Source: a virus (lineage: Duplodnaviria; Heunggongvirae; Uroviricota; Caudoviricetes). From it: a DNA stretch of 64,000 nt. Below, piece after piece: positions 7,568 to 46,667 of the stretch. The notes below the pieces were generated by a model that was not told where the DNA came from, ran no database searches, and worked only from the letters and a program-made list of their open reading frames with translations. A program made the translations under genes and the position numbers. The stretch is taken from the IMG/VR virus record IMGVR_UViG_3300042923_000692, positions 26,709 through 90,708 of that record; one strand, written 5' to 3'. Within the stretch, counting starts at the first letter, position 1; every line of letters begins with the position of its first letter.

Positions 7568-8880
7568 GCAGCAACACTCTCATTACCTGTGAATCGTCGA
7601 ATCGGGATGACGTTGTCATTCTTGGGTTCTTCCTTTCTAAACGGAGATTTGTCACCGAACATTTCCTTCTCGTAAGTACGCTCGTTGAAGGTTTTCTTGG
7701 TCATCAGGGTTTTCCAGATGGCCTTATCGATGGGGGCGGTTGAACGAAGAATATAGTAGAACAAATCTACATACTTCGTGTTTAGACGATCGATTCGTCC
7801 TTTCGACTGGTGGAATGCTTTCCAAGAATATGGGAGGCTATAAAACGCAATAGCATCAGTACTAATACAGTTCCAGCCTTCAGATCCTGCAGTGTACTGG
7901 ACAAGGTAGATCCACTTGTCCCCGTCCGGGATTTTCTCATGTTTCTGTCCATTCCATTCAGCCAATGGATAATTGAGCGTCGTCCGAAGGGTCCTCAACG
8001 TATCCAACTCGTAGTTGAAGTTGTAGAAGATGATCAGACGAGGGTGCTTCTCTAGAATGCGTAGGATTTCTCCCAGACGGCTAGGGTCGCTGTTCGTAAG
8101 CTTTCGGCAGTAAGCCAAGAGGTCCGTGATACCTTGGAAGGGTTCTTCGGTATCAGGATTGAAACGTGACGCCACGACTTGCTTATACTTAGCATCATCA
8201 TAGTCGCTAAGAACATAGATTTCATGTCGTTTTGTATGCCGCTCGTATGGCATGTCAACCAGGATTTGGTCTCGAAGACGGTCGAGATGACCTGTTGCCA
8301 CGAATCGTTCCACTTTAGGGAATTTGCTAAAGCGGCTGAATACAGCATGTTCCCGAAGGAACTCCGACCTGTTCTTAAAGAAGCCATTAGCAACGAATAC
8401 TGGAATATAGTCCATCCAAGTATCCCCGGGCGTGGCCGACAGAAGGATCCATCGGTTGTTCGCGGCGATCTTGTAGAACGACTTAACCCAAGCACCCGAT
8501 CCGACCAACCGCTGCTCATCGAATATGAAGAAAGCATCAGTGATGTGTTCGTATTGACTGATGTTGTTCCAGGAGTCGACGTGCATTTGGACTCCATTTG
8601 GGTCGGATTCTCTAAAGAGTCCAAGTTTTCCTCCATCCAGTTCCCATTCCATATCATTGCGCTTCTTAGCCGTGGTGATGATATACAGATCCATGGGATT
8701 CTCCATGGGCTTTACTGTATCAACCACCCCCGGGATAATAGGCATACCCTTACATTCCTTCATGTAGTAATATGCCAACGCAGTGATTGTCTTACCGGTA
8801 CCGACTTCTCCGCGAAGAATCGACCCGTTGTGCATTTCGAGAATCGCCTGCATCTGATGAGGCATTAGACTGACGCCCAT
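7564..8880 (-). CDS. SF2 (SNF2/DEAD-like) DNA helicase
   Basis: 438 aa; Walker A GEVGTGKT, motif II FIFDEQR, C-terminal helicase motifs. Confidence 0.75.
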   Translation of the reverse strand: MGVSLMPHQMQAILEMHNGSILRGEVGTGKTITALAYYYMKECKGMPIIPGVVDTVKPMENPMDLYIITTAKKRNDMEWELDGGKLGLFRESDPNGVQMHVDSWNNISQYEHITDAFFIFDEQRLVGSGAWVKSFYKIAANNRWILLSATPGDTWMDYIPVFVANGFFKNRSEFLREHAVFSRFSKFPKVERFVATGHLDRLRDQILVDMPYERHTKRHEIYVLSDYDDAKYKQVVASRFNPDTEEPFQGITDLLAYCRKLTNSDPSRLGEILRILEKHPRLIIFYNFNYELDTLRTLRTTLNYPLAEWNGQKHEKIPDGDKWIYLVQYTAGSEGWNCISTDAIAFYSLPYSWKAFHQSKGRIDRLNTKYVDLFYYILRSTAPIDKAIWKTLMTKKTFNERTYEKEMFGDKSPFRKEEPKNDNVIPIRRFTGNESVAA

Positions 8881-11009: not shown

Positions 11010-11430
11010 TTGTCCCCTTTCAAGAGATACCCATAATTGTGACCACAAAAAGATAGGGTATGGGGGCCGCGCCGATAGCCGACGAGACCCCCATATAATC
11101 AGGCGCCCGAGAATGATCCCGGGAACAGTTCCAGCTGTCTGTGACTTCGCCACCTCTGGAAAGGCGCTTATTGGTAACATAGTTACCTGCATATATACCT
11201 GATAGCGCGGTTTTAACTAACTCATCCACAGGGGGGCCTAACCCCCATAAACTTTCGGTGCGGCGCCACACCGCTCACGTACCGGCTGCTGCATGATACA
11301 ACCTGCCATTACCCCAAGTATCACAGGGGCACCGATACCGCACTGGACCTAAGAGCTATTTAAACTCGTCCAGTCGAGTTCCCACATACCGAAGATCTGG
11401 GAGTAGGTCAAACCTTCGGGCTGAAGGATA

Positions 11431-23161: not shown

Positions 23162-23196
23162 GGGGTGGGGTTCCTTTCAAGAGATGAAATGGGTCT

Positions 23197-23225
23197 CATT
23201 ATAGGCCTTGTTTTTCCTGCGAGGA
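23197..23225 (-). promoter_or_regulatory. conserved promoter-like motif (copy a)
   Basis: minus strand CCTCGCAGGAAAAACAAGGCCTATAATGAGAC followed by TCTTGAAAGGAAC...ATG. Confidence 0.45.
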
Positions 23226-25565: not shown

Positions 25566-27170
25566 CTATCGAACGAAGTTGGCGATCAGAGCCGGTGCGT
25601 TCGAGTCGAACCCTGCGATATCCAGGGCATTGAGATCGGACGGATCCGCCATCGAGAACTTGTTCGCAGTCACCGCGTTAACGATGATCTTCGCGTTCAC
25701 TCCCGAGACATGACGGTATCGCTCGAGCGCCTGGAACGGGTGGTGGTAACCCAGACCGTTCTCGTTGTCCGTGAAGAGAACGAAGGCGTCGACCTTCATG
25801 TCCTTCTGCAGAGCATCCATCATCGGGAGGGAGAGGTTTGTGCCCCGGAAGGGGAACGCGCCAGTCTCAGTCATCACAGTCTCGAGGGAATCCCGAGCGG
25901 TGATGTTGAGGAACTCCATCCGATCCTGGAAAGCACCGAAGTAGTGCTCACGCTCCGTTCGAGCCACCACCATCGCCATAACCGCGGCGATCTCACGAGG
26001 TGACAGCGGAACCTTGTCGGAAATCCGAGAAGGACCATCCATCGACTGTGAAACATCGATGCCGAGGTAGTGCGCCTTGCCGGTGGGCTCGACCGCAGCG
26101 AAGGAACCGTAGAACGATCCCTCGAGCGCTGCAACGATCCGACCAACGGGAGACCACTGGCTACGCTCGCCATATCCCTGACCGTAAGTACGCATCGCGA
26201 TGAGCGCATTGACGGGGTGGATACGAGCCTTACGAAGCTCGTCCGAGTCGGTGAGTCGATCCTCGATTCGTCCGGTCCAACCACCGAGTTGCGTGATCAG
26301 CCCCAGGTTGGTAAGACGAGGAAGCTGGCGGATGAGCGCCCCAAGAGGCACGTTTCCCTCGAGAAGGGCCTCCCACACGGGGACATCGTTCAACACTTCG
26401 GTCGGAAGCATCTCCCACGAGAGACCATACTCGCGGATGATACGAGGAATATCCCGAGCGTCAGCGGTCTTGGCGATCTCGAAGCCCTGAACGACACGAG
26501 GAAGTTCCTCGATCGCGACAGACTTACCAAGCGCCCAGTCCAGAAGCGGACCAGAGGAGGGACGGTCGCTCGACTTGACGTACTTCGACAGACGAAGCGT
26601 ACGAGAGTGATCGAACCCACCGCGCTGACGGTACTTGACCATCTGGTAGGCAAGCTTGTCGACCGGCTTCTCGTTGTACCAGCGTCCGATCGCCTTCTTG
26701 AGACCCGTTCCGCCCAGGTTCTTGAACTGGGACAGATATCCGAGGAACTCGAAAAGGGTCGAAGCCGTCCGAGCGACTGCCTGGATCGCCTGGAATCCGA
26801 GGTTCTTCACCTTCGGGTCTTCCGTCGAGGCGATCACCAGAGCCAGAGCGAACAGACCAGGAGACTGGCTCGGCGCCCGGCCAGAAACTGAAACCTCTGT
26901 GATGAGGTCGATCAGCTCGATAGCCCGGTCGGACTCGGCGAGCTTCTTGATCGTCTCGGCGTTCTTCATGGCGAGCTTGCCGCCGGCCTGGTAGAACGAG
27001 GACTCCGATCCGAGGATCAGGAATCGCTCGGCACGCTTCATGTCATCGATCTTGAAGACGTATCCGCCCTGGTGGCTCTTGACCTGGTCGGGGGTGGCGC
27101 GGACTGTCGCGGGGGTCGTGTTTCGGTGTGCTGCGTGTCCAAATGACACACCGCGGAGTGAGTTGGGCAT
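25566..27170 (-). CDS. rsr: Ro60 orthologue (Rsr): TROVE domain + C-terminal vWA
   Basis: 534 aa; TROVE-like N-terminal region; MIDAS-type GIDVSQSMDG in the C-terminal vWA; GAAGGAG SD. Confidence 0.75.
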   Translation of the reverse strand: MPNSLRGVSFGHAAHRNTTPATVRATPDQVKSHQGGYVFKIDDMKRAERFLILGSESSFYQAGGKLAMKNAETIKKLAESDRAIELIDLITEVSVSGRAPSQSPGLFALALVIASTEDPKVKNLGFQAIQAVARTASTLFEFLGYLSQFKNLGGTGLKKAIGRWYNEKPVDKLAYQMVKYRQRGGFDHSRTLRLSKYVKSSDRPSSGPLLDWALGKSVAIEELPRVVQGFEIAKTADARDIPRIIREYGLSWEMLPTEVLNDVPVWEALLEGNVPLGALIRQLPRLTNLGLITQLGGWTGRIEDRLTDSDELRKARIHPVNALIAMRTYGQGYGERSQWSPVGRIVAALEGSFYGSFAAVEPTGKAHYLGIDVSQSMDGPSRISDKVPLSPREIAAVMAMVVARTEREHYFGAFQDRMEFLNITARDSLETVMTETGAFPFRGTNLSLPMMDALQKDMKVDAFVLFTDNENGLGYHHPFQALERYRHVSGVNAKIIVNAVTANKFSMADPSDLNALDIAGFDSNAPALIANFVR

Positions 27171-27291: not shown

Positions 27292-27336
27292 ACTCGGGTT
27301 TGGACATCTAGACAGGTTTGTGATATTCGACTTTTT

Positions 27337-27426
27337 AGACAGTTGCTCTGCCGATTGAGCTACACGTCATAGAGACGCGACGGGACTTGAACCCGTAACA
27401 CACGGATAACCGAATATCTTGGATCT
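27337..27426 (-). ncRNA. Y-RNA-like module 7 with permuted tRNA-like domain (YrlA-like)
   Basis: order T-arm ACGGG-TTCAAGT-CCCGT, acceptor 3' strand CGCGTC, loop TCTAT, acceptor 5' strand GACGTG, D-arm GCTC-AATCGGCA-GAGC. Confidence 0.5.
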
Positions 27427-27443
27427 AGATGGACTTGGGATTC

Positions 27444-27561
27444 AGACAGGGAATTGATGATCGATAAGCGTGTTGCCGATTACACTACGAAGCTAATGCT
27501 TCGGTGGGATTCGAACCCACAATACTCTTTCCGCATAAGATAACCGATCAAACTTGGATCT
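27444..27561 (-). ncRNA. Y-RNA-like module 6 with permuted tRNA-like domain
   Basis: T-arm GTGGG-TTCGAAT-CCCAC, then CGAAGC-ATTA-GCTTCG acceptor hairpin, then D-arm GTGT-AATCGGCA-ACAC. Confidence 0.5.
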
Positions 27562-27590
27562 GAATCGTGCTGGAACTACAGTTAAACCCC

Positions 27591-27643
27591 AGACAGGTTT
27601 GCGCGAAAGCGTTATTTTACAGATGACGCTAACGCTTGGATCT
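27591..27643 (-). ncRNA. Y-RNA-like module 5 (hairpin type)
   Basis: AGATCCAAG...CTGTCT boundaries; loop with TCATCT. Confidence 0.35.
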
Positions 27644-27669
27644 GGGATGGTTAAATGGATTAAAGGTTT

Positions 27670-27829
27670 AGACAGGAGTATGAGCATCGAATTTGTTGAG
27701 GTGTGACTACCGGGCACAAGGCAACCGGTCGCTTTAGGCCGCTCAGCCACGAGGGAATCTTAATAAGATACCTCGACGGGATTTGAACCCGCGGTCGCAT
27801 GATTCTAGATAACGATGACTCTTGGATCT
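27670..27829 (-). ncRNA. Y-RNA-like module 4 with permuted type-II-like tRNA domain
   Basis: T-arm CGGG-TTCAAAT-CCCG, acceptor strands CGAGGTA / TCCCTCG closed by a TTATTAA loop, Ser/Leu-like D region GCT-GAGCGGCCTAAA-AGC plus ACCGG...CCGGT arm. Confidence 0.45.
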
Positions 27830-27847
27830 AAACCAAGATTAAAACTC

Positions 27848-27907
27848 AGACAGGGGAATGCAAATGAGGTAATTTTCTCCCTAAGATAACCCTCGTAGCT
27901 TGGATCT
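27848..27907 (-). ncRNA. Y-RNA-like module 3 (hairpin type)
   Basis: boundary motifs; GAGG...CCTC stem with GTTATCT loop. Confidence 0.35.
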
Positions 27908-27926
27908 GAGTTGGATAAGCGGGTTC

Positions 27927-27985
27927 AGACAGGGATTCATGTTAGAGGATTGTCTGCAAGATAGATAACTCTAACACTTGGATCT
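27927..27985 (-). ncRNA. Y-RNA-like module 2 (hairpin type)
   Basis: boundary motifs; TGTTAGAG/CTCTAACA 8-bp stem, loop begins TTATCT. Confidence 0.35.
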
Positions 27986-28004
27986 GAACCGTAAAATAGG
28001 ACGA

Positions 28005-28130
28005 TAGACAGGGTGGTTGACGATTGGGTATAAGCGCTCTGCCGACTGAGCTACACGATGCACGCACCATGACGGGACTCGAACCCGCGACCTCTCCATT
28101 AACAGTGGGTAACCAATCATCTTTGGATCT
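28005..28130 (-). ncRNA. Y-RNA-like module 1 with permuted tRNA-like domain
   Basis: AGATCCAAAG start; T-arm GCGGG-TTCGAGT-CCCGT; acceptor strands ATGGTGC / GCATCGT; D-arm AGCTC-AGTCGGC-AGAGC; 9-bp terminal helix CCAATCGTC/GATGATTGG. Confidence 0.45.
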
Positions 28131-28139
28131 ATCGTTTCG

Positions 28140-28212
28140 CTCCTACACCAGGACTCGAACCTGGAACCAACGCATTAACAGTGCGACGCTCTGCCAATTG
28201 AGCTATGTAGGA
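28140..28212 (-). tRNA. tRNA-Asn (anticodon GTT), canonical order
   Basis: cloverleaf: acceptor TCCTACA/TGTAGGA, D-arm GCTC-AATTGGCA-GAGC, anticodon loop CTGTTAA, T-arm CCAGG-TTCGAGT-CCTGG. Confidence 0.7.
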
Positions 28213-28979: not shown

Positions 28980-29067
28980 TTTCTTGTCCTTTCAAAGACA
29001 GTCGATCTTTGGTGAATGGGATGGTGGGAGCCAAAGCATTTCGCGTATGACTCCCACCGGGGATTTT

Positions 29068-30018: not shown

Positions 30019-30112
30019 CAGTTTTTCGTGTCCTTTCAAGACAGATGATCTTGCGAAAATGAGAAAGCAGAAGCACTCACTTTGGGGGTGTGAGTGCTTC
30101 TGCTGTCCGTGA

Positions 30113-30301: not shown

Positions 30302-30331
30302 TGAGTATTCCTTTCAAGAATGTGTTACGGT

Positions 30332-30361
30332 GTCATTATAGGGCTTGTGATTCTTGCGAGG
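30332..30361 (-). promoter_or_regulatory. conserved promoter-like motif (copy b)
   Basis: CCTCGCAAGAATCACAAGCCCTATAATGACAC + CATTCTTGAAAGGAATACTCAATG. Confidence 0.45.
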
Positions 30362-30855: not shown

Positions 30856-30887
30856 CGGTTACTCCCATTTTGATTGAATTGACGCAG

Positions 30888-30956
30888 TACTTACGACGGG
30901 ATTCGAACCCGCATCCTAAGCCAGAGGCTCAGCTCTACCAGTTAAGTTACGTAAGT
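30888..30956 (-). tRNA. tRNA (canonical order; anticodon uncertain, possibly TCT/Arg)
   Basis: acceptor ACTTACG/CGTAAGT, T-arm GCGGG-TTCGAAT-CCCGT; D and anticodon arms irregular. Confidence 0.45.
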
Positions 30957-35499: not shown

Positions 35500-35576
35500 G
35501 GGATCCTCCTTTCGGTCAAACAAAAGTGAAAGGCGCAACTGGCGGGTTGCGATGTAGTCCTTTCGGTCTACCCTTT

Positions 35577-35604
35577 CACTATAGGGCTTGCAATTCTTGC
35601 GAGG
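35577..35604 (-). promoter_or_regulatory. conserved promoter-like motif (copy c)
   Basis: CCTCGCAAGAATTGCAAGCCCTATAGTG upstream of the GNAT gene. Confidence 0.4.
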
Positions 35605-35910
35605 TTAAGCCGCTTTCTCAGCGTTTTTCAGTTCTAGATATAGAGCATATCGCTCTTTAGGATTTAGTCCGGCAAACATACCGTGACGGTTATGTGAATC
35701 GCTATCTTCCTCGACCTCCATGATCCAAGCTAGGCAATCTTCTCGAACATCACAGCTACCACATATCTTTCGAGCTTCTGTGTATTGGACGCCGGCATCC
35801 GGGAAGAACGGCTGAAATCCAACTTGAGTACACAGTGCTCCATCTTGCCACGGGAGCTTTTGAGGTGCTGCGATATGGATCTGCACCTCGTAAATTGTTC
35901 CGTTTTTCAT
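35605..35910 (-). CDS. whiB: WhiB-family Fe-S transcription factor
   Basis: 101 aa; four-Cys pattern C-x..-CGSC-x5-C plus basic C-terminus. Confidence 0.75.
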   Translation of the reverse strand: MKNGTIYEVQIHIAAPQKLPWQDGALCTQVGFQPFFPDAGVQYTEARKICGSCDVREDCLAWIMEVEEDSDSHNRHGMFAGLNPKERYALYLELKNAEKAA

Positions 35911-35926
35911 CGTGTCTTTCTTGGGG

Positions 35927-35962
35927 AGGGAGAAAGAAAGAAAGCCTCGATGATGAGGCCTC
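35927..35962 (-). terminator. intrinsic terminator
   Basis: minus strand GAGGCCTC-ATCATC-GAGGC then TTTCTTTCTTTCT. Confidence 0.5.
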
Positions 35963-35970
35963 CTTTCGTA

Positions 35971-36207
35971 CTACTTGGTGAGGGCGTGGTCTACGGCTGT
36001 GATGGCGATGGAGCCAAGGGTGGCTGCTGCGATGGAGGCGACGGAGACGACGATGGCTCCGATGACGAGCTGCTTGCCGAGTCGGCCGGCGGCTGCTTCT
36101 GCAGCTGCGACGTAGTCGACAGTGGGCTCTTCGATCGGGATCTCGTCGGTCTTCTTCGTCTTCTTCGGGAAGAGCGTGACCTTGACTTCAGGCTTAAAAA
36201 TGGCCAT
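35971..36207 (-). CDS. small membrane protein
   Basis: 78 aa; C-terminal TM. Confidence 0.5.
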   Translation of the reverse strand: MAIFKPEVKVTLFPKKTKKTDEIPIEEPTVDYVAAAEAAAGRLGKQLVIGAIVVSVASIAAATLGSIAITAVDHALTK

Positions 36208-36228
36208 GAGAGTTTCCTTTCAGGGGGT

Positions 36229-36258
36229 GTCATTATAGGCCCTGTAATTCTTGCGAGC
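36229..36258 (-). promoter_or_regulatory. conserved promoter-like motif (copy d)
   Basis: GCTCGCAAGAATTACAGGGCCTATAATGACAC + CCCCTGAAAGGAAAC..ATG. Confidence 0.45.
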
Positions 36259-36299
36259 ACGCCAAAAAGAGAAGGCCCGGTTAGGGGCGATCTCCTTTA

Positions 36300-36464
36300 C
36301 TACTTCGAGGTCTGGATGATGTAGAGCTTCTCGATCTTGGTCGTTCCGGGGAGGGGCTTGCACGTGCGGTGCTTCCGAATCTGGTGGGTGATACCAGCGG
36401 CGGTTGCGGCGACGGCGACTCCTGCAGCGGCGACGATCAGTTTGATCTTGGTGTCTTCGTTCAT
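36300..36464 (-). CDS. 54-aa membrane peptide
   Basis: ORF absent from the track; MNEDTKIKLIVAAAGVAVAATAAGI... Confidence 0.45.
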   Translation of the reverse strand: MNEDTKIKLIVAAAGVAVAATAAGITHQIRKHRTCKPLPGTTKIEKLYIIQTSK

Positions 36465-36484
36465 GGTTAGTCCTTTCGAGGGGT

Positions 36485-36514
36485 GTCATTATATGCCCTG
36501 TGAAATCTGCGAGC
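36485..36514 (-). promoter_or_regulatory. conserved promoter-like motif (copy e)
   Basis: GGCTCGCAGATTTCACAGGGCATATAATGACAC + CCCTCGAAAGGAC. Confidence 0.45.
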
Positions 36515-36520
36515 CAAAAA

Positions 36521-36633
36521 CCATAAGAGCTGTATCTTGCCTGGTATCAAGGCGTTTAAGCTACTCCATTGCTGATCCGCTTGCCTGGTAAATCAAGGCG
36601 TTTAAGCTACTCCTTTGCCGCGGACTCTTATGG
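36521..36633 (-). ncRNA. candidate small structured RNA or iteron element with its own promoter and U-run
   Basis: 9-bp closing inverted repeat CCATAAGAG/CTCTTATGG; two tandem 33-34-nt direct repeats (cttgcctggta[a]atcaaggcgtttaagctactcc); T5 immediately downstream on the minus strand; no ORF. Confidence 0.4.
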
Positions 36634-36662
36634 TCATTATAGTGCTTGTGATTCATGCGACG
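36632..36662 (-). promoter_or_regulatory. conserved promoter-like motif (copy f) driving the ORF-less element
   Basis: GTCGCATGAATCACAAGCACTATAATGACC. Confidence 0.45.
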
Positions 36663-36667
36663 ACCTC

Positions 36668-36700
36668 GCGAAAAAAGGAAAGGGCTCCGTAGAGCCCCGT
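36668..36700 (-). terminator. intrinsic terminator
   Basis: GGGGCTC-TACG-GAGCCC + TTTCCTTTTTT. Confidence 0.55.
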
Positions 36701-36703
36701 CCG

Positions 36704-36835
36704 TTAGTCGAACTCGGGATGGTTGAGATTGTCGAAGAGACGCTCAGCATGGCTCCTACCCAGAAGCTCGATGACGACATCGTAGATGTCTTCTTCGGGC
36801 TGGTAGATGGTAGGGGCGGACTGCATTGTCTTCAT
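36704..36835 (-). CDS. 43-aa acidic peptide
   Basis: ORF absent from the track; MKTMQSAPTIYQPEEDIYDVVIELLGRSHAERLFDNLNHPEFD; own promoter and terminator. Confidence 0.4.
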   Translation of the reverse strand: MKTMQSAPTIYQPEEDIYDVVIELLGRSHAERLFDNLNHPEFD

Positions 36836-36855
36836 TTGGTCTCCCTTTCAGAGGT

Positions 36856-36886
36856 GTCATTATAGTGCTTGCAATTTGTGCGAGGG
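36856..36886 (-). promoter_or_regulatory. conserved promoter-like motif (copy g)
   Basis: CCCTCGCACAAATTGCAAGCACTATAATGACACC + TCTGAAAGGGAGACCAAATG. Confidence 0.45.
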
Positions 36887-36888
36887 AG

Positions 36889-36915
36889 CAAAAAAGAAAG
36901 GCTCCGAAGAGCCTC
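36889..36915 (-). terminator. intrinsic terminator
   Basis: GGCTC-TTCG-GAGCC + TTTCTTTTTT. Confidence 0.55.
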
Positions 36916-36919
36916 TCCT

Positions 36920-37093
36920 TTAACGGAATCGATTACGAATCGAATCCTGGGTGGCAAGGTAGATCAGCGCTTCCTTGGAAGTCGCAGCTCCGAGTTCTCG
37001 GACAACGCGGCTGGTGCCGCGGATGTATCCGAATGAGAACGCGATTGCTGCGGTTCCAACGACTGCGATGGCGATCTTGGCCTTTTCGTCCAT
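36920..37093 (-). CDS. 57-aa membrane peptide (start MDEKAKIAIAVVG)
   Basis: TM helix; SD GAAAGGAACCATC; the track's 110-aa version would read through the promoter and terminator. Confidence 0.45.
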   Translation of the reverse strand: MDEKAKIAIAVVGTAAIAFSFGYIRGTSRVVRELGAATSKEALIYLATQDSIRNRFR

Positions 37094-37113
37094 GATGGTT
37101 CCTTTCGATCTGG

Positions 37114-37144
37114 TGTCGTTATAGGACCTGTGATTAGTGCGAAA
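37114..37144 (-). promoter_or_regulatory. conserved promoter-like motif (copy h)
   Basis: GTTTCGCACTAATCACAGGTCCTATAACGACACC + AGATCGAAAGGAACC. Confidence 0.4.
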
Positions 37145-37200
37145 CATTTCATGGAAAACCCCACCCGGGGAAATTTTTGAAAGGGGTTGTGGCTTTCGCG

Positions 37201-37246
37201 CAAAACGGAAGGAGGTCCCGGCAGCGGTTAAGCTACTAGGACCTCC
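37201..37246 (-). terminator. terminator-like hairpin
   Basis: GGAGGTCC...GGACCTCC 8-bp stem then TTCCGTTTTG; loop contains GGTTAAGCTACT, the motif also found in the 36521..36633 repeats. Confidence 0.4.
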
Positions 37247-37289
37247 TCCCATTTTGATTGAATCTGCCGAATAGTGGCCGATGCCGGCT

Positions 37290-37580
37290 TCAGGCCTTGC
37301 GGATGAAGCTGACTGCTTTCGAGGTCAGAGAATGACCGGCCTGCTCATAGGCGATGATCACGAGGATTCCTCCGATGGACGCGATGACGGGGATCCAGTC
37401 CTTCAGGGTTGTACGTTCGCGGACGTTGGGGTCCTTGATCTTGTACAGCTCCTGAAGTGCTGTCACCATCTTCGCGTACTCGGGGGAGTCCGCCGTGACC
37501 GAAGCCATCTGGTCAGTGATGTCTTTGATCTGCTTCTCGATGAGAGTCTGCTTGTCCTGCTTGGTCTTCTTGCTAAGCAT
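37290..37580 (-). CDS. small membrane protein (holin-like?)
   Basis: start MLSKKTKQ after CTCTTGAAAGGAGACCCC; C-terminal TM. Confidence 0.5.
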   Translation of the reverse strand: MLSKKTKQDKQTLIEKQIKDITDQMASVTADSPEYAKMVTALQELYKIKDPNVRERTTLKDWIPVIASIGGILVIIAYEQAGHSLTSKAVSFIRKA

Positions 37581-37603
37581 GGGGTCTCCTTTCAAGAGAT
37601 GGG

Positions 37604-37632
37604 TGTCACTATAGGGCTTGTGATTCTCGCGT
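37604..37632 (-). promoter_or_regulatory. conserved promoter-like motif (copy i)
   Basis: CACGCGAGAATCACAAGCCCTATAGTGACACCC. Confidence 0.45.
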
Positions 37633-37633
37633 G

Positions 37634-38074
37634 TTACTCAGTAACTCGCAGGCGCACAACCTCGGCCTTAACCGCCTCAAGCTCCTGCTGCTTACCAACA
37701 AAGATAGCAAGCAGAGCAGAGAAAGACGAAAGAGCCAGCGACAGTCCGGCCAGAAGAGCGGCGTTAGTTTCCGCATCATACAGGCCGAAGAACACCAGAG
37801 CCGGTGAGACGGTGGCTGCGAGACCGTAGACGGCCGCGCGAATCACAGTCCAACCCGTGCTCCAGTCACCCTTACGCACATTGACCAGAGCCAGAAGTGC
37901 AGCGAGGAACTGAAGAACGGCACCAGCGATGATGAGTGCATTCTCAGTCTGAGCCTGTGTGGCGAAACCACCAAGAATCAGAAGAGGTGCGAGCGAACCG
38001 AGCCACAGCTGAATAAGCTGTCGTCGTTCGGGGTTAAAGAAATCAGCGAACTTCTGCATTGTATTCTCTTTCAT
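37634..38074 (-). CDS. multi-pass membrane protein (holin-like)
   Basis: 146 aa, ~4 TM helices, charged C-terminus; start may be ATG at 38059. Confidence 0.5.
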   Translation of the reverse strand: MKENTMQKFADFFNPERRQLIQLWLGSLAPLLILGGFATQAQTENALIIAGAVLQFLAALLALVNVRKGDWSTGWTVIRAAVYGLAATVSPALVFFGLYDAETNAALLAGLSLALSSFSALLAIFVGKQQELEAVKAEVVRLRVTE

Positions 38075-44500: not shown

Positions 44501-46667
44501 GACCGATAAGAGCACCGCCGAGGATCCACAGCTTACCGGCGCCGGTGACCAAACGGTCCATAAGAACCATCATGCCAGCCAACTGACCAAACATGATCGT
44601 CATCGCTCCGAGAACGATAAACAGCTTGGCGGTATCGACGAACGAAAGAGCCACGACCGCGGCCGTGAGCAAACCGATCGCGATGGCGATACCCATAAGG
44701 GACGCAGCCTTGAGTGTGTTCTGCATCTCGTCGAAAGTGTCGGTCATGGCGGTAAAGACACCCTTAATGGTGTCGACCATGCCGCCGCCCTCCTTCTTAT
44801 CGAAGATTCCCTTGATGAAATCAAAGGCCTTCTTAAGAATGATGCCGATACCAGTAAGAGCTCCGACGTTCAACAGACCCACAAGGACGTTGAAGTCCAT
44901 GGTTTCGAAGAAATCGCCCAAGACCTTCTTGGCGTCACGGAAGAAGTTTCCGAGTTCGACCCACACCGGAGCGAGGAACTCACCGATCTTCTTGAATGCG
45001 TTTGCTACTGCTTCCCAAGCAGCTGCGAGATCCCACGTAGATACCGCATTAACGGTCCAGGCGCCAAGTTCACGCAGCTTATCGATCGGATACTGGAGAA
45101 CATTGCCCAAGAACTCGAAGATCTTGTTCAATGCATCGCCGTTCTTGATGGCGTCTCGAACCTTAACCAGCCAGTCACCAATACCCGCAGTAACGGCAAG
45201 AACTCCACCGGCGCCCTCGGTAGCCGCTCCGAAGAGTCGACCGAAGAGACCGATGACCTGCTTGATGATCATCCAACCAATGTCGAGAACCGCGAAGACG
45301 CCCATAAAGGTACTCTTCAGGTTCTTCATCGTCTCGGCAGACGGCTTCATGCTCTCCGCGAAGAGCTTGAAGTTGTTTGCCATGACCAGAAGGTTGTGGA
45401 TGGTGATCGGCGGGAATATCTCCTTGAACGCGCTCTGGATGGGCATGATGTACATCTTCACGGCTTGCCAGATACTGGCGATGCCGGAAAGAATGTTATC
45501 GCGCCCTCCCATTTTGACGAATCCACGAATGAGATCGTTGCGGGTCTCGGCCATGTGACCGATGACGCCACCGAGCTCGTCATTGACGGCCGTCCAGAGA
45601 TCTGTAGCCTGGTTGAAGTCACCGATCAGGAGATCGAAAGTTTCAGACCAACCCGATCCGACAGACTCCTGCATGGTACCAAGAAGCTGCGTAAAGGTAC
45701 GAACCTTCGTAGCCGCATTCTCAGACATCTCTTGCTGGGCCTTGAATGTGGCGATCTGAGCATCAGACAGACCCAGAGATGCCTGAGTAGCTGCGTCCAT
45801 ATCGCCGGCCATGATCTTGAGATAGTTCGACATGACATCTGCCGACAGCCAGTTATGCTCAAGCGAACCGTTGAAGTTCTTAGAGGCTTCTTCCGCAGAA
45901 GTAGTCTCGTCATTGAACATACCCATAGACTCGGCGATCTCGATGAGACCGTTCTGCATGTTCTTGTTACCCATACCCACATTCTGGAGCGAACGCCAGT
46001 CCATGAGTCGAATAGTACCTGCAGAAAGAGCCTGAGAAAGCTGATAGGCAGCACCGGCGGCGCCCTGGGCGTTAGTGCCAGAGGCCGCGGCTTCGTTGGA
46101 GAAACCCTTGATGAGGGACGTTGCTTCGCCGATCTGAAGACCGGCATTGGTGAACAGACCAATGTTCTTGGTCATGTCTCCGAAGTTATAGATGGTCTTA
46201 TCGGCGTACGTGTTGAGCGCGTCAAGATTGGCTGTAACTTCGGGAAGCTGAGTCCCGTATCGAGCGGTGTTGGAGAGGATGGTTTGAATCGAGCCCATCT
46301 TGAGCTCGTACTCAGCGAATCCCGCCTTGACTGGATCGATGGTGAGCGACTTAGCGATGGTTATACCGGCATCCACCGCACGATTGGCGATGTTGGCGAG
46401 CGCGGTAATCGCGACTACAGACATCGCGCCGAACTTAGACGCGATTTCCGAAACGCCATCGGCGAGGCTAGTCAGAGAGAAGTTTTTCCCGGCTCGATCC
46501 AGATCATTAAGACCCTTAGCCGCGTCCCCCAGATTCAAGCCTTGCTTCAGTTTTTCGAGAGCCTTGCTTGTGTCGGCAACGCCCTTTTGGAACTGATCGC
46601 CGTTAAATTTCATTCCGACGACGCGTTCGTCGATCTTGCTACTCATGCAGTGGTCACCTCCGTCCAA
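41562..46667 (-). CDS. tape measure protein
   Basis: 1701 aa; coiled-coil ends and long hydrophobic Ala/Gly/Ile-rich repeats typical of tape measure proteins. Confidence 0.85.
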   Translation of the reverse strand: MDGGDHCMSSKIDERVVGMKFNGDQFQKGVADTSKALEKLKQGLNLGDAAKGLNDLDRAGKNFSLTSLADGVSEIASKFGAMSVVAITALANIANRAVDAGITIAKSLTIDPVKAGFAEYELKMGSIQTILSNTARYGTQLPEVTANLDALNTYADKTIYNFGDMTKNIGLFTNAGLQIGEATSLIKGFSNEAAASGTNAQGAAGAAYQLSQALSAGTIRLMDWRSLQNVGMGNKNMQNGLIEIAESMGMFNDETTSAEEASKNFNGSLEHNWLSADVMSNYLKIMAGDMDAATQASLGLSDAQIATFKAQQEMSENAATKVRTFTQLLGTMQESVGSGWSETFDLLIGDFNQATDLWTAVNDELGGVIGHMAETRNDLIRGFVKMGGRDNILSGIASIWQAVKMYIMPIQSAFKEIFPPITIHNLLVMANNFKLFAESMKPSAETMKNLKSTFMGVFAVLDIGWMIIKQVIGLFGRLFGAATEGAGGVLAVTAGIGDWLVKVRDAIKNGDALNKIFEFLGNVLQYPIDKLRELGAWTVNAVSTWDLAAAWEAVANAFKKIGEFLAPVWVELGNFFRDAKKVLGDFFETMDFNVLVGLLNVGALTGIGIILKKAFDFIKGIFDKKEGGGMVDTIKGVFTAMTDTFDEMQNTLKAASLMGIAIAIGLLTAAVVALSFVDTAKLFIVLGAMTIMFGQLAGMMVLMDRLVTGAGKLWILGGALIGLATAMVIFAAAVKIMASMDWVELARGLSAMAIGLALMVAAMKLLDGKGLGVKLMVSAGAMVVLATAIVIMAGALKIMATMSWDDILRASAMLAGSVAIMVGAGKLAQKGVGGTAALLGLGVTMAIMAGALKVFSTMGWDDIGRAITVMGATVGILVGAVAILSTLKMAPVGAATMIAMAIAITILTGAMKIFATFSWDEIGRSLVMLAGSLAILAGAMALMGIPIVALGGLALFVVSAGLMMLAPALALLGTMSWDAIGRGLTVLGASIAILAVGGLLLIPASVGFLLLGTAIMLIGTGAYLAGAGLLMMSAGLVALAAAGTLGTEALKAAVEVIIGLIPTAMAAFAQGIIDFALVIAGGATEFTAAMTTLITSLLNAINTTAPLVIDTIWNLVVMLVNKVVEGVPFFVDAGMRLLIGILDGIANNVGRLIDSATAVIVNFIDGIARNLPTIIQSGANLIISFVEGLAQGIRNNKARMQTAAKELASEIISGLTFGLSDGIGQVMDAARRVAENALNAAKNFLGIASPSKEFIKVGKFATEGFVKGLTGSNDEINAATKTMREALTSAIEGSDKTIEKATDRLKTLTKARKLDYEEIRKQRAIIAEATAEKKRASAALKTLNEDMDDERDHLRALSKDYDKVTTKLEEARKKLEDAKKTRDDYAKSLKDQFDNLPSIDGNTTQRSYYTDLKTQVKETLEFTEKLQELRSMGLNDALYEQLLSSGTAALPFMDDILAQGKGGVAELNSMSKQLTKASSTLGSTASKSLYQAAVDSAAGLVEGLKKQEKAISSQMDKIATAMVETIKKKLGIKSPSREFMKLGKFTSEGLALGIRKNANLVNKAGEFVGDGAIHAVRKSIEAISSAVMTDVNVEPTIRPVLDLSAIRKDSGQLDGILNPAALKVDKGYAYATNIASATEQVEQMKLEFAAESSGGDTYYTQNNYSPKALSQAEIYRNTRNQLSVAKGKVTTNNALPSGGTN

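Follow-up and report, generated by a model that had tools for sequence, protein, structure and literature searches.

A 33-nt promoter motif repeated before small-gene cassettes of a tailed phage, with a phage-encoded two-barrel RNA polymerase as its probable reader

YonO-type enzymes, in which a single polypeptide forms a two-barrel polymerase, are regarded as models for the ancestor of all cellular RNA polymerases. YonO itself transcribes one long late operon of Bacillus prophage SPbeta, with P-YONO as its single mapped promoter, the sequence of which was left undefined (Forrest et al. 2017, PMC5467207); how the enzyme finds a promoter was left open at its characterisation (PMC5467207). Another protein, a signature of a phage 'supercluster' that includes cluster EL, has already been proposed to be a YonO-like polymerase, and its DxDGD motif and the helix-turn-helix (HTH) domains at both of its ends have been reported (Koert et al., bioRxiv 10.1101/842583). 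Here we describe a 64,000-nt stretch of a Caudoviricetes genome (IMG/VR record IMGVR_UViG_3300042923_000692, positions 26,709 to 90,708; hereafter the window), in which a 33-nt motif, tTCGCAnGAATCACAaGgCCTATAATGACACC, is repeated before small, mostly separately terminated genes and RNAs. We conclude that the repeat is a real promoter family, and we put the probability that its reader is the polymerase of the phage itself and not the sigma-A holoenzyme of the host at roughly 60%.

The repeated motif and its relatives

The window is a reverse complement within metagenome contig Ga0456364_0000501 (JGI; 95,562 bp), and its genes lie on the minus strand throughout. A position weight matrix (PWM) was trained on the sites reported in a preliminary description of this DNA and scanned over both strands. 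The scan returned the full motif exactly nine times, always on the minus (coding) strand, where it reads cCTCGCAaGAATcACAAGcCCTATAATGACACC. These copies score 40-54 bits, any other position in the window scores below 8 bits, and shuffled sequences reach about 10 bits. Seven of the nine are clustered at 35572-37634 and two are isolated (P8 and P9 in Table 1). A core-only PWM built from 20 copies found no additional intergenic copies and none upstream of structural or replication genes. On the whole contig the motif occurs about 20 times, always co-oriented with the genes: besides the nine in the window there are four copies just past window position 1 (segment L008) and six or seven farther out (segment L016), or about 11 outside the window altogether. 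The array is real and far beyond chance.

Across 20 copies the information content is about 45 bits, spanning -31 to +6. No copy departs from CGC, C15 (one C of CACA), TATA or the GA that comes straight after the box. The box is TATAAT or TATAGT in 18 copies and TATAAC in the other two, which have a C at the equivalent of the -7 T. Just past the box, GA(C/G)A(C/A)C is kept across lineages, much as the initially transcribed region is in T7-type promoters. On the upstream side, TCGCA is 13-14 bp and ACA 5 bp away from the box; positions -35 to -30 are either unconserved or inside the T-run of the preceding terminator. The -35 region had been called atypical before, and rightly so: no TTGACA-like hexamer is found 16-18 bp upstream of the box in any lineage examined, nor is there a TGn extension. 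A scan of the window with a simple sigma-70 consensus showed no enrichment (6 sites versus 7.9 expected).

Downstream of seven copies an extended Shine-Dalgarno (SD) box, (CT)CTTGAAAGGA(G), follows at 5-15 nt, and an ATG comes 5-9 nt further on. This extended box is the full complement of the 16S rRNA 3' tail. The preliminary description had placed an SD box and a start codon behind every copy, which is true of these seven; P4 instead heads a unit that lacks an open reading frame (ORF), and at P7 a structured RNA comes first. Its count of at least nine near-identical copies is borne out as exactly nine, whereas the three degenerate variants that it added, at 11021, 28990 and 30040, each score below 8 bits and are not copies. 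The site at 11021 carries a different motif, GGTCACAATTATGGGTA, and that at 28990 shares an SD-like box alone. At 30040 (about 30030-30060, minus strand) the upstream half, TTTTCGCAAGATCA, is joined straight to the SD of the next gene and the TATAAT core is gone; this site looks like a decayed promoter remnant.

The closest cultured relative is Microbacterium phage Count (cluster EL), which is about 73% identical in nucleotide sequence in patches and syntenic over the tape measure, the minor tail genes, the small-gene array, WhiB and the acetyltransferase. In Count the motif precedes the ortholog of each window cassette (genes 36-40, 42, 57 and 68) and recurs in a second array near the right end of the genome, and in phage Camille, too, it stands upstream of orthologous genes. 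The reading of the repeats as parts of promoter-plus-terminator cassettes had been made vulnerable to absence of the motif before homologous genes in relatives; it is present there, and the common orientation and the fixed distance to SD and ATG also speak for that reading. Orthologous copies share peculiarities, for example ACGCGAG…TATAGT before the 96-aa gene in both the window phage and Count, which points to old copies inherited vertically without recent homogenisation.

A common core, CGCr-N7-8-ACA-N5-TATrrT-GA, unites Count, Camille (Microbacterium; TCGCGnAAAAAACAnGnCTTATGGTGAGAAC), Rima (Streptomyces; GGTCGCATATTTTACACGCCCTATAGTGAGACC), Zeina (Arthrobacter; TTTCGCAnAAATTACAnGGCTTATAATGAGAAC) and P092 (Lactococcus, 33% G+C; GTTTTACATACCCTATAATGAGA, at least 11 copies), and a metagenomic relative (L014) has the same core. 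The Faecalibacterium phage FP_oengus has a diverged form, GACGCGAAAAATnCAGnnTnCTTTATGGAAGG, in which the box has drifted to TATGGA or TATGAG and lost the -7 T; the boxes of Camille include TATGGT and TATGAT, and in P092 only 5 nt separate a TTTACA box from TATAAT, while a -35 box and a TG extension are both missing. In Rima, Zeina, Camille, P092 and FP_oengus the copies stand before small genes or RNAs that end in a hairpin and T-run. When a 46-nt promoter-plus-SD query was compared by BLAST with 50,697 phage records, 116 matched, from phages of Arthrobacter, Streptomyces, Gordonia, Curtobacterium, Microbacterium (4 records) and Rhodococcus, and from the human-associated 'Siphovirus contig89'; among the matches listed, the query always lay on the gene (+) strand, mostly in unannotated spacers.

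A two-barrel polymerase and the reader of the motif

A protein search combined with a contig look-up tied a 927-aa polymerase, P0003, to the contig of the window, where it is encoded 22.7 kb beyond window position 1; a metagenome scan with its Count homolog, gp132, did not return this contig. P0003 is 87% identical to gp132, which is the product of the last large gene of Count and is annotated merely as an HTH DNA-binding protein. Count gp132 matches PHROG 4291 ('RNA-dependent RNA polymerase') over its full length, and in Pfam it gives a weak RdRP match (E 3e-3) with Sigma70_r4/HTH matches at both ends. A catalytic loop resembling that of beta-prime, SGADFDGD, is invariant in alignments of 12 and 40 homologs, including the Lactococcus and Faecalibacterium proteins. 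When an AlphaFold model (pLDDT 76.6) was used for a fold search with Foldseek, QDE-1 came first (E 2e-9), followed by P74 gp62, RDR2, bacterial and eukaryotic beta-prime/Rpb1 subunits and the crAss phi14:2 polymerase; a sequence and profile search against the PDB gave only HTH matches and sub-significant beta-prime matches. From these matches, P0003 is predicted to be a single-polypeptide two-barrel (YonO/QDE-1-like) polymerase with a sigma-region-4-like HTH at both ends. Homologs occur in 250 phage records, as the last big gene at the right end wherever the genome map is known, and the genera of these phages comprise all of those with the motif plus Lactococcus, Faecalibacterium and a few others; the overlap was checked record by record for the listed rows and is otherwise a match of genera. 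Neither a sigma factor nor a T7-family polymerase is annotated in Count. The preliminary description had proposed a phage-specific or alternative sigma factor as the reader, of which the phage-specific part probably stands; the more likely agent is this polymerase, which the contig encodes.

The case for the phage polymerase is drawn from the lack of a -35 box, the odd spacings of the upstream boxes, the dispensable -7 T, the invariant GA, the match of genera, and the position of RNA helices relative to the box. In about ten convincing ORF-less or leader units at five loci, the closing helix of a terminator-ended RNA starts between -2 and +2 nt from the end of the box; they include the units of P4 and P7 in the window, a 30-nt hairpin RNA on L008, the tRNA-containing units of P092 and one unit of Zeina. 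If transcription began about 7 nt downstream, as in sigma-70 geometry, the 5' arm of the closing helix would be lost. We infer the following scheme. The HTH domains of the polymerase would contact the upstream boxes (T)CGC(A/G) and (T/C)ACA, the DNA would melt at TATA(A/G)(T/C), and RNA synthesis would begin with the invariant G just past the box or with a neighbouring base. The short transcripts would carry either a perfect extended SD and a tiny ORF or a small structured RNA, would yield membrane peptides, with WhiB and GNAT reached by read-through, and would end at a hairpin and U-run. The outcome would be insulated cassettes of maximal strength in three arrays of the genome, one of them within the window. 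The fuller claim has, in our estimate, slightly better than even odds: that the motif is the cognate promoter of an uncharacterised class of phage polymerase, a minimal two-barrel enzyme that uses its own sigma-region-4-like HTHs, a bipartite upstream element and a TATA-GA box without any sigma factor. In each genome this promoter would serve some 20 insulated mini-operons and small RNAs, and it would be kept from phages of Lactococcus to those of Streptomyces.

Several points weigh against assigning the motif to the phage enzyme. The box is a perfect TATAAT, the consensus of the primary sigma factor, and promoters with a -10 element alone can function in Actinobacteria. No copy stands before structural or replication modules (none in window 38-64 kb or in Count 1-30 kb), which is unlike the late promoters of T7-type phages. 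At the polymerase operon itself the motif is present only in a weak form, with a leader terminator behind it, and the first supply of the enzyme would need another source, either the host polymerase or injection of the enzyme with the DNA; by analogy with lambda, the right end with the polymerase operon would enter the cell first. The co-occurrence of motif and polymerase could simply mirror the shared ancestry of a supercluster whose members have many genes in common (bioRxiv 10.1101/842583). Finally, the argument for the start site from closing helices is indirect, and the P7 helix could instead terminate read-through from whiB.

The main rival reading, which we consider less likely, is that the repeats are strong '-10 only' early promoters for host SigA (sigma-70 family), that TCGCA and CACA bind an accessory factor of phage or host or were merely inherited by duplication, and that the cassettes hold early host-takeover genes. 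Actinobacterial promoters often lack a -35 box. Most copies have the perfect consensus TATAAT, and even TATGGT and TATGAT of Camille still fit the actinobacterial TANNNT; small membrane proteins, WhiB and GNAT look like early or accessory functions, and some transcription is needed before any phage polymerase exists. However, the absence of a -35 box at 16-18 bp extends to every lineage, including P092, where the TG extension is missing too, even with a Firmicute host, and the spacings of TCGCA and ACA could not be used by sigma region 4. The -7 T is replaced by C in 2 of 20 copies and lost in FP_oengus, whereas the GA past the box is invariant, and about 45 bits are conserved from -31 to +6. 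The elements outside sigma recognition are kept across host phyla, yet only in genera with polymerase-bearing phages. The RNA closing helices begin at the box edge, and the 4-5 bases that come after the GA are conserved between lineages.

Improbable by comparison is the idea that the repeat mainly binds a regulator, forming an array of operators or 'stoperator'-like sites, or that it serves recombination in the manner of the promoter-early stem-loops (PeSLs) of T4, with TATAAT incidental or secondary. Terminator and promoter do form a repeated module of about 60 nt that flanks small ORFs whose content varies between relatives, and the apparent remnant near 30040 has its upstream half fused to an SD; yet the TATA box is part of the motif, whose spacing to SD and ATG is fixed, orthologous copies with shared idiosyncrasies are old and were inherited vertically without recent homogenisation, and neither a repressor nor an integrase is reported in cluster EL (PMC7302621). 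That the plus strand carries a T7/SP6-like promoter (…GTGTCACTATAGGGCTTG…) for antisense transcription can be set aside, since its plus-strand string TCACTATAGGG occurs in only two of the nine copies while the others have TCATTATAGG, no T7-family polymerase is annotated in Count, and the genes, SD boxes and U-run terminators all lie on the minus strand.

The polymerase operon of several relatives is preceded by a non-coding region of 360-870 nt with dense short repeats: Count (L002 44144-44862; TGGCCAAA and GTGCCATAAT), FP_oengus (L017 26895-27768; GGCCAAAAA) and P092 (L007 44413-44772; CCCGGATTTT, also with a perfect TTGACA). The operon behind it is Cas4-RNA polymerase in Count and FP_oengus and hydrolase-RNA polymerase in P092, and the repeat-rich region might function in early control or as an origin of replication. 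A second motif, GGTCAC(A/T)(A/T)TTATGGGTA, occurs twice upstream of the VRR-Nuc/Cas4/RNA-polymerase operon on the same contig (L016, about 8140-8230) and in Count (L002, about 44700-44800), and once in the window, at 11028-11044 (minus strand), upstream of a gene starting near 11012; it may represent a different promoter or regulatory class.

Cassettes, small RNAs and neighbouring features of the window

The units between 35.5 and 37.7 kb comprise, in order, those of the 96-, 57- and 43-aa genes, the ORF-less RNA, the 54-aa gene, the 78-aa gene with WhiB, and the leader RNA with GNAT (Table 1). When the spacers were folded with RNAfold, a hairpin and U-run was found after the 96-, 57-, 43-, 54-, 78-, 62- and 91-aa genes and after the ORF-less unit, so that eight units are terminated within about 350 nt. 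Their products are one WhiB, one small GNAT and several proteins of 43-96 aa, mostly membrane proteins without known function. Each unit of this interval had been described as having its own promoter and terminator, which is so for most of them. The WhiB gene has no copy of the motif upstream in the PWM scan and lies behind the terminator of the 78-aa gene; presumably it is expressed by read-through. The GNAT gene has no terminator of its own and continues into two further genes, and the leader RNA lies between it and its promoter. A search of viral contigs for related loci with the GNAT protein returned one unrelated locus only.

Table 1. Positions of promoters, genes, terminators and RNAs of the cassettes, in window coordinates
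Feature	Coordinates	Strand	Evidence or remark
Holin-like gene	37634-38074		Just upstream of the array; P1 directly after
Promoter P1 (ACACGCGAGAATCACAAGCCCTATAGTGACACC)	37602-37634	-	PWM 44.7 bits; Count ortholog upstream of gene 36 with the same idiosyncrasies
96-aa membrane protein gene, phrog_5818, function unknown	37290-37580	-	Homologs at the same position in 60 phage records
Terminator hairpin and U-run after 96-aa gene, loop with AGTAGCTTAACCGC	37201-37255	-	RNAfold
Second hairpin downstream of this terminator	37153-37170	-	RNAfold
Promoter P2, box TATAAC (C at -7 equivalent)	37112-37144	-	PWM 40.4 bits
57-aa membrane protein gene	36920-37093	-	Ortholog is Count gene 37
Terminator (GAGGCTCTTCGGAGCC + T6) after 57-aa gene	36889-36921	-	RNAfold
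Promoter P3	36853-36885	-	PWM 47.6 bits
43-aa acidic peptide gene	36704-36835	-	
Terminator (GGGGCTCTACGGAGCCC + T-run) after 43-aa gene	36671-36702	-	RNAfold
Promoter P4, heads the ORF-less unit	36630-36662	-	PWM 40.5 bits
ORF-less RNA, about 115 nt	36516-36635	-	RNAfold
Promoter P5	36482-36514	-	PWM 40.6 bits
54-aa membrane protein gene	36300-36464	-	Ortholog is Count gene 39
Terminator after 54-aa gene	36264-36298	-	RNAfold
Promoter P6	36226-36258	-	PWM 50.5 bits
78-aa membrane protein gene	35971-36207	-	Conserved: Count gp40, Camille gp33, Zeina gp38
Terminator after 78-aa gene	35931-35967	-	RNAfold
WhiB-family gene	35605-35910	-	Pfam PF02467, E 2.3e-14
Promoter P7, abuts the whiB stop codon	35572-35604	-	PWM 42.5 bits
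Y-shaped leader/small RNA, 63 nt	35517-35579	-	Between P7 and the GNAT ribosome-binding site
GNAT acetyltransferase gene, 111 aa	35164-35499	-	Pfam PF00583, 23.2 bits; Count gp42 annotated acetyltransferase
Promoter P8, exact consensus, isolated	30329-30361	-	PWM 53.9 bits; ortholog upstream of Count gene 57
62-aa membrane protein gene behind P8	30113-30301		Strong terminator at end
Promoter P9, isolated	23192-23224	-	PWM 45.2 bits; ortholog upstream of Count gene 68
91-aa membrane protein gene behind P9	22886-23161		Terminator at end

The content of the cassettes varies between relatives. For example, the ORF-less unit has no counterpart in Count, and Camille lacks WhiB. The cassettes of the 96-aa and 78-aa genes, on the other hand, are conserved across host genera, the homologs of the 96-aa protein coming from phages of Streptomyces, Arthrobacter, Rhodococcus and Microbacterium. 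The earlier suggestion of a hotspot for gene acquisition therefore gains slight support from the former and loses by the latter.

The ORF-less RNA of P4 has a closing helix, ACCAUAAGAG/CUCUUAUGGU, that begins 1 nt past the box, is followed by U5, and encloses two direct repeats, GGAGUAGCUUAAACGCCUUGAU(UU)ACCAGGCAAG. While this helix is robust, the fold inside it does not surpass that of shuffled sequences (z = -1.6). The P7 leader is built of GUGAAAGG, a hairpin 1, [GCAAC-CCGCCA-GUUGC], CCUUUCAC and a U-run, and would start inside the box or at its edge. It is conserved in Count and in Camille, where it follows the acetyltransferase, and P092 has a similarly built unit; a BLAST search with the leader RNA had Count as its sole match. 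In an alignment of four sequences, 9 of 18 pairs changed on both sides in at least one, and these compensatory changes, from four sequences only, are suggestive of a conserved RNA fold. Rfam gave nothing above chance for either RNA. They may attenuate the GNAT operon or act as stable small RNAs, and the P7 leader may instead stop transcription that reads through from whiB.

Further observations bear on RNAs of this kind. The string AGTAGCTTAA(A/C)CGC occurs exactly three times on the minus strand, twice inside the P4 RNA (36552-36565 and 36598-36611) and once in the loop of the terminator of the 96-aa gene (37224-37237); the orthologous terminator in Count also has a GCTTAAC loop. On the same contig, two more promoter copies drive no ORF (L008 13107-13175 and 14504-14660): the product of one is an RNA hairpin of some 30 nt with T6 at its end, and that of the other a highly structured RNA (about 135 nt, dG -53.7) with a conserved counterpart in Count near 70019. 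Similarly, in P092 (L007 19581-20080) and FP_oengus (L017 2843-3100) the same promoter stands directly before a tRNA or tRNA-like gene, the tRNA being wrapped in an extra helix and followed by a T-run as a promoter-terminator cassette of its own.

Elsewhere in the window, a Ro60/TROVE + vWA ortholog is encoded at 25566-27170 (minus strand; PF25045, E 3.5e-50; PF05731, E 3.6e-30). Just upstream of it, at 27321-28095 (minus strand), lie three sub-threshold matches to YrlA (Y RNA-like, RF02553; best 45.4 bits, E 1.4e-8), and the region also has tRNA-like fragments and repeats, CCCTGTCTGA…AGATCCAAG; together these look like a phage Ro60 and Y-RNA module. A full-length Pistol self-cleaving ribozyme was found at 11312-11379 (minus strand; Rfam RF02679, 42.7 bits against a gathering score of 34.5). 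There are two tRNA genes, tRNA-Asn(GTT) at 28139-28212 and tRNA-Arg(TCT) at 30887-30956, both on the minus strand, and further tRNA-like fragments, uncalled by ARAGORN, at 27.2-27.5 kb and 31.1-31.3 kb.

Comparison with described systems

If the phage polymerase does read this motif, the first promoter consensus for any YonO-like polymerase can already be read from genomes, as a consensus of about 30 nt shared by over 100 sequenced phages, several of which (Count, Rima and P092) can be cultured. The system would then offer a compact orthogonal set of polymerase, promoter and terminator for Actinobacteria and Firmicutes, would explain the post-tail 'small-gene arrays' in clusters EL, BD, AU, DJ and others, and would mark several small RNAs next to promoters as output of the phage transcription programme. 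Should host SigA read it instead, the repeats are early promoters of an ordinary kind that happen to be unusually regular. A regulon of promoters served by a phage polymerase is a known kind of system; this class of polymerase together with a candidate promoter is undescribed in the literature that we searched, to which our access was limited. Our literature search found no description of the motif, though an earlier account may exist in the papers on Rhodococcus phage ReqiPepy6 or Lactococcus phage 1706, and searches by sequence string returned unrelated primers only. Neither the Arthrobacter phage paper (PMC5513430) nor the Microbacterium phage paper (PMC7302621) describes the motif, the cassettes or the small RNAs, and the latter gives no repeated motif for cluster EL and never uses the word 'promoter'.

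The latter paper does describe repeats in clusters EC and EI, asymmetric, 18-30 bp long, placed in short intergenic gaps in one orientation 20-30 bp before start codons, and of unknown function (PMC7302621). Their sequences differ from the motif described here, and both clusters lie outside the polymerase-bearing supercluster; no EL motif is reported with them. Two further systems also have small accessory ORFs clustered in plastic genome regions, each with a repeated promoter before it and a stem-loop terminator behind it. These are the PeSLs of T4-type phages (reportedly described by Arbiol, Comeau and Krisch in 2010) and the lambdoid morons (reportedly by Juhala and Hendrix in 2000), both of which are said to use host sigma-70 promoters, and morons are said to be expressed from prophages. 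The cassettes of the window resemble morons in that one gene, placed between phage genes, is flanked by a promoter and a terminator that serve it alone. The strict sense of the term does not apply, as there is no sign of prophage expression, and in contrast to both systems the phage is apparently lytic and the motif has no -35 box and tracks a phage polymerase.

T7-type promoters are alike in being long, near-invariant motifs that run through the start site, here a predicted one, in many co-oriented copies limited to polymerase-encoding phages, with purine starts and short leaders. Here, however, the predicted polymerase is a two-barrel, beta/beta-prime-like protein with fused HTHs and not a right-hand enzyme, and the motif, of about 33 nt, has a TATAAT-like box, precedes no structural gene, and heads units that are nearly all monocistronic and terminated. 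The putative polymerase of the actinophage/Lactococcus-1706/FP_oengus supercluster of Koert et al. (bioRxiv 10.1101/842583) is the same protein family in the same set of phages, cluster EL included; their text does not contain the word 'promoter' and does not describe the motif, the cassettes or the small RNAs. YonO (PMC5467207) is likewise a siphovirus single-polypeptide two-barrel DNA-dependent RNA polymerase, with a start upstream of an unannotated non-coding RNA. Compared with YonO, the enzyme described here belongs to a phage-1706-like branch, carries N- and C-terminal HTHs, and has a candidate promoter that stands about 20 times per genome before mini-cassettes.

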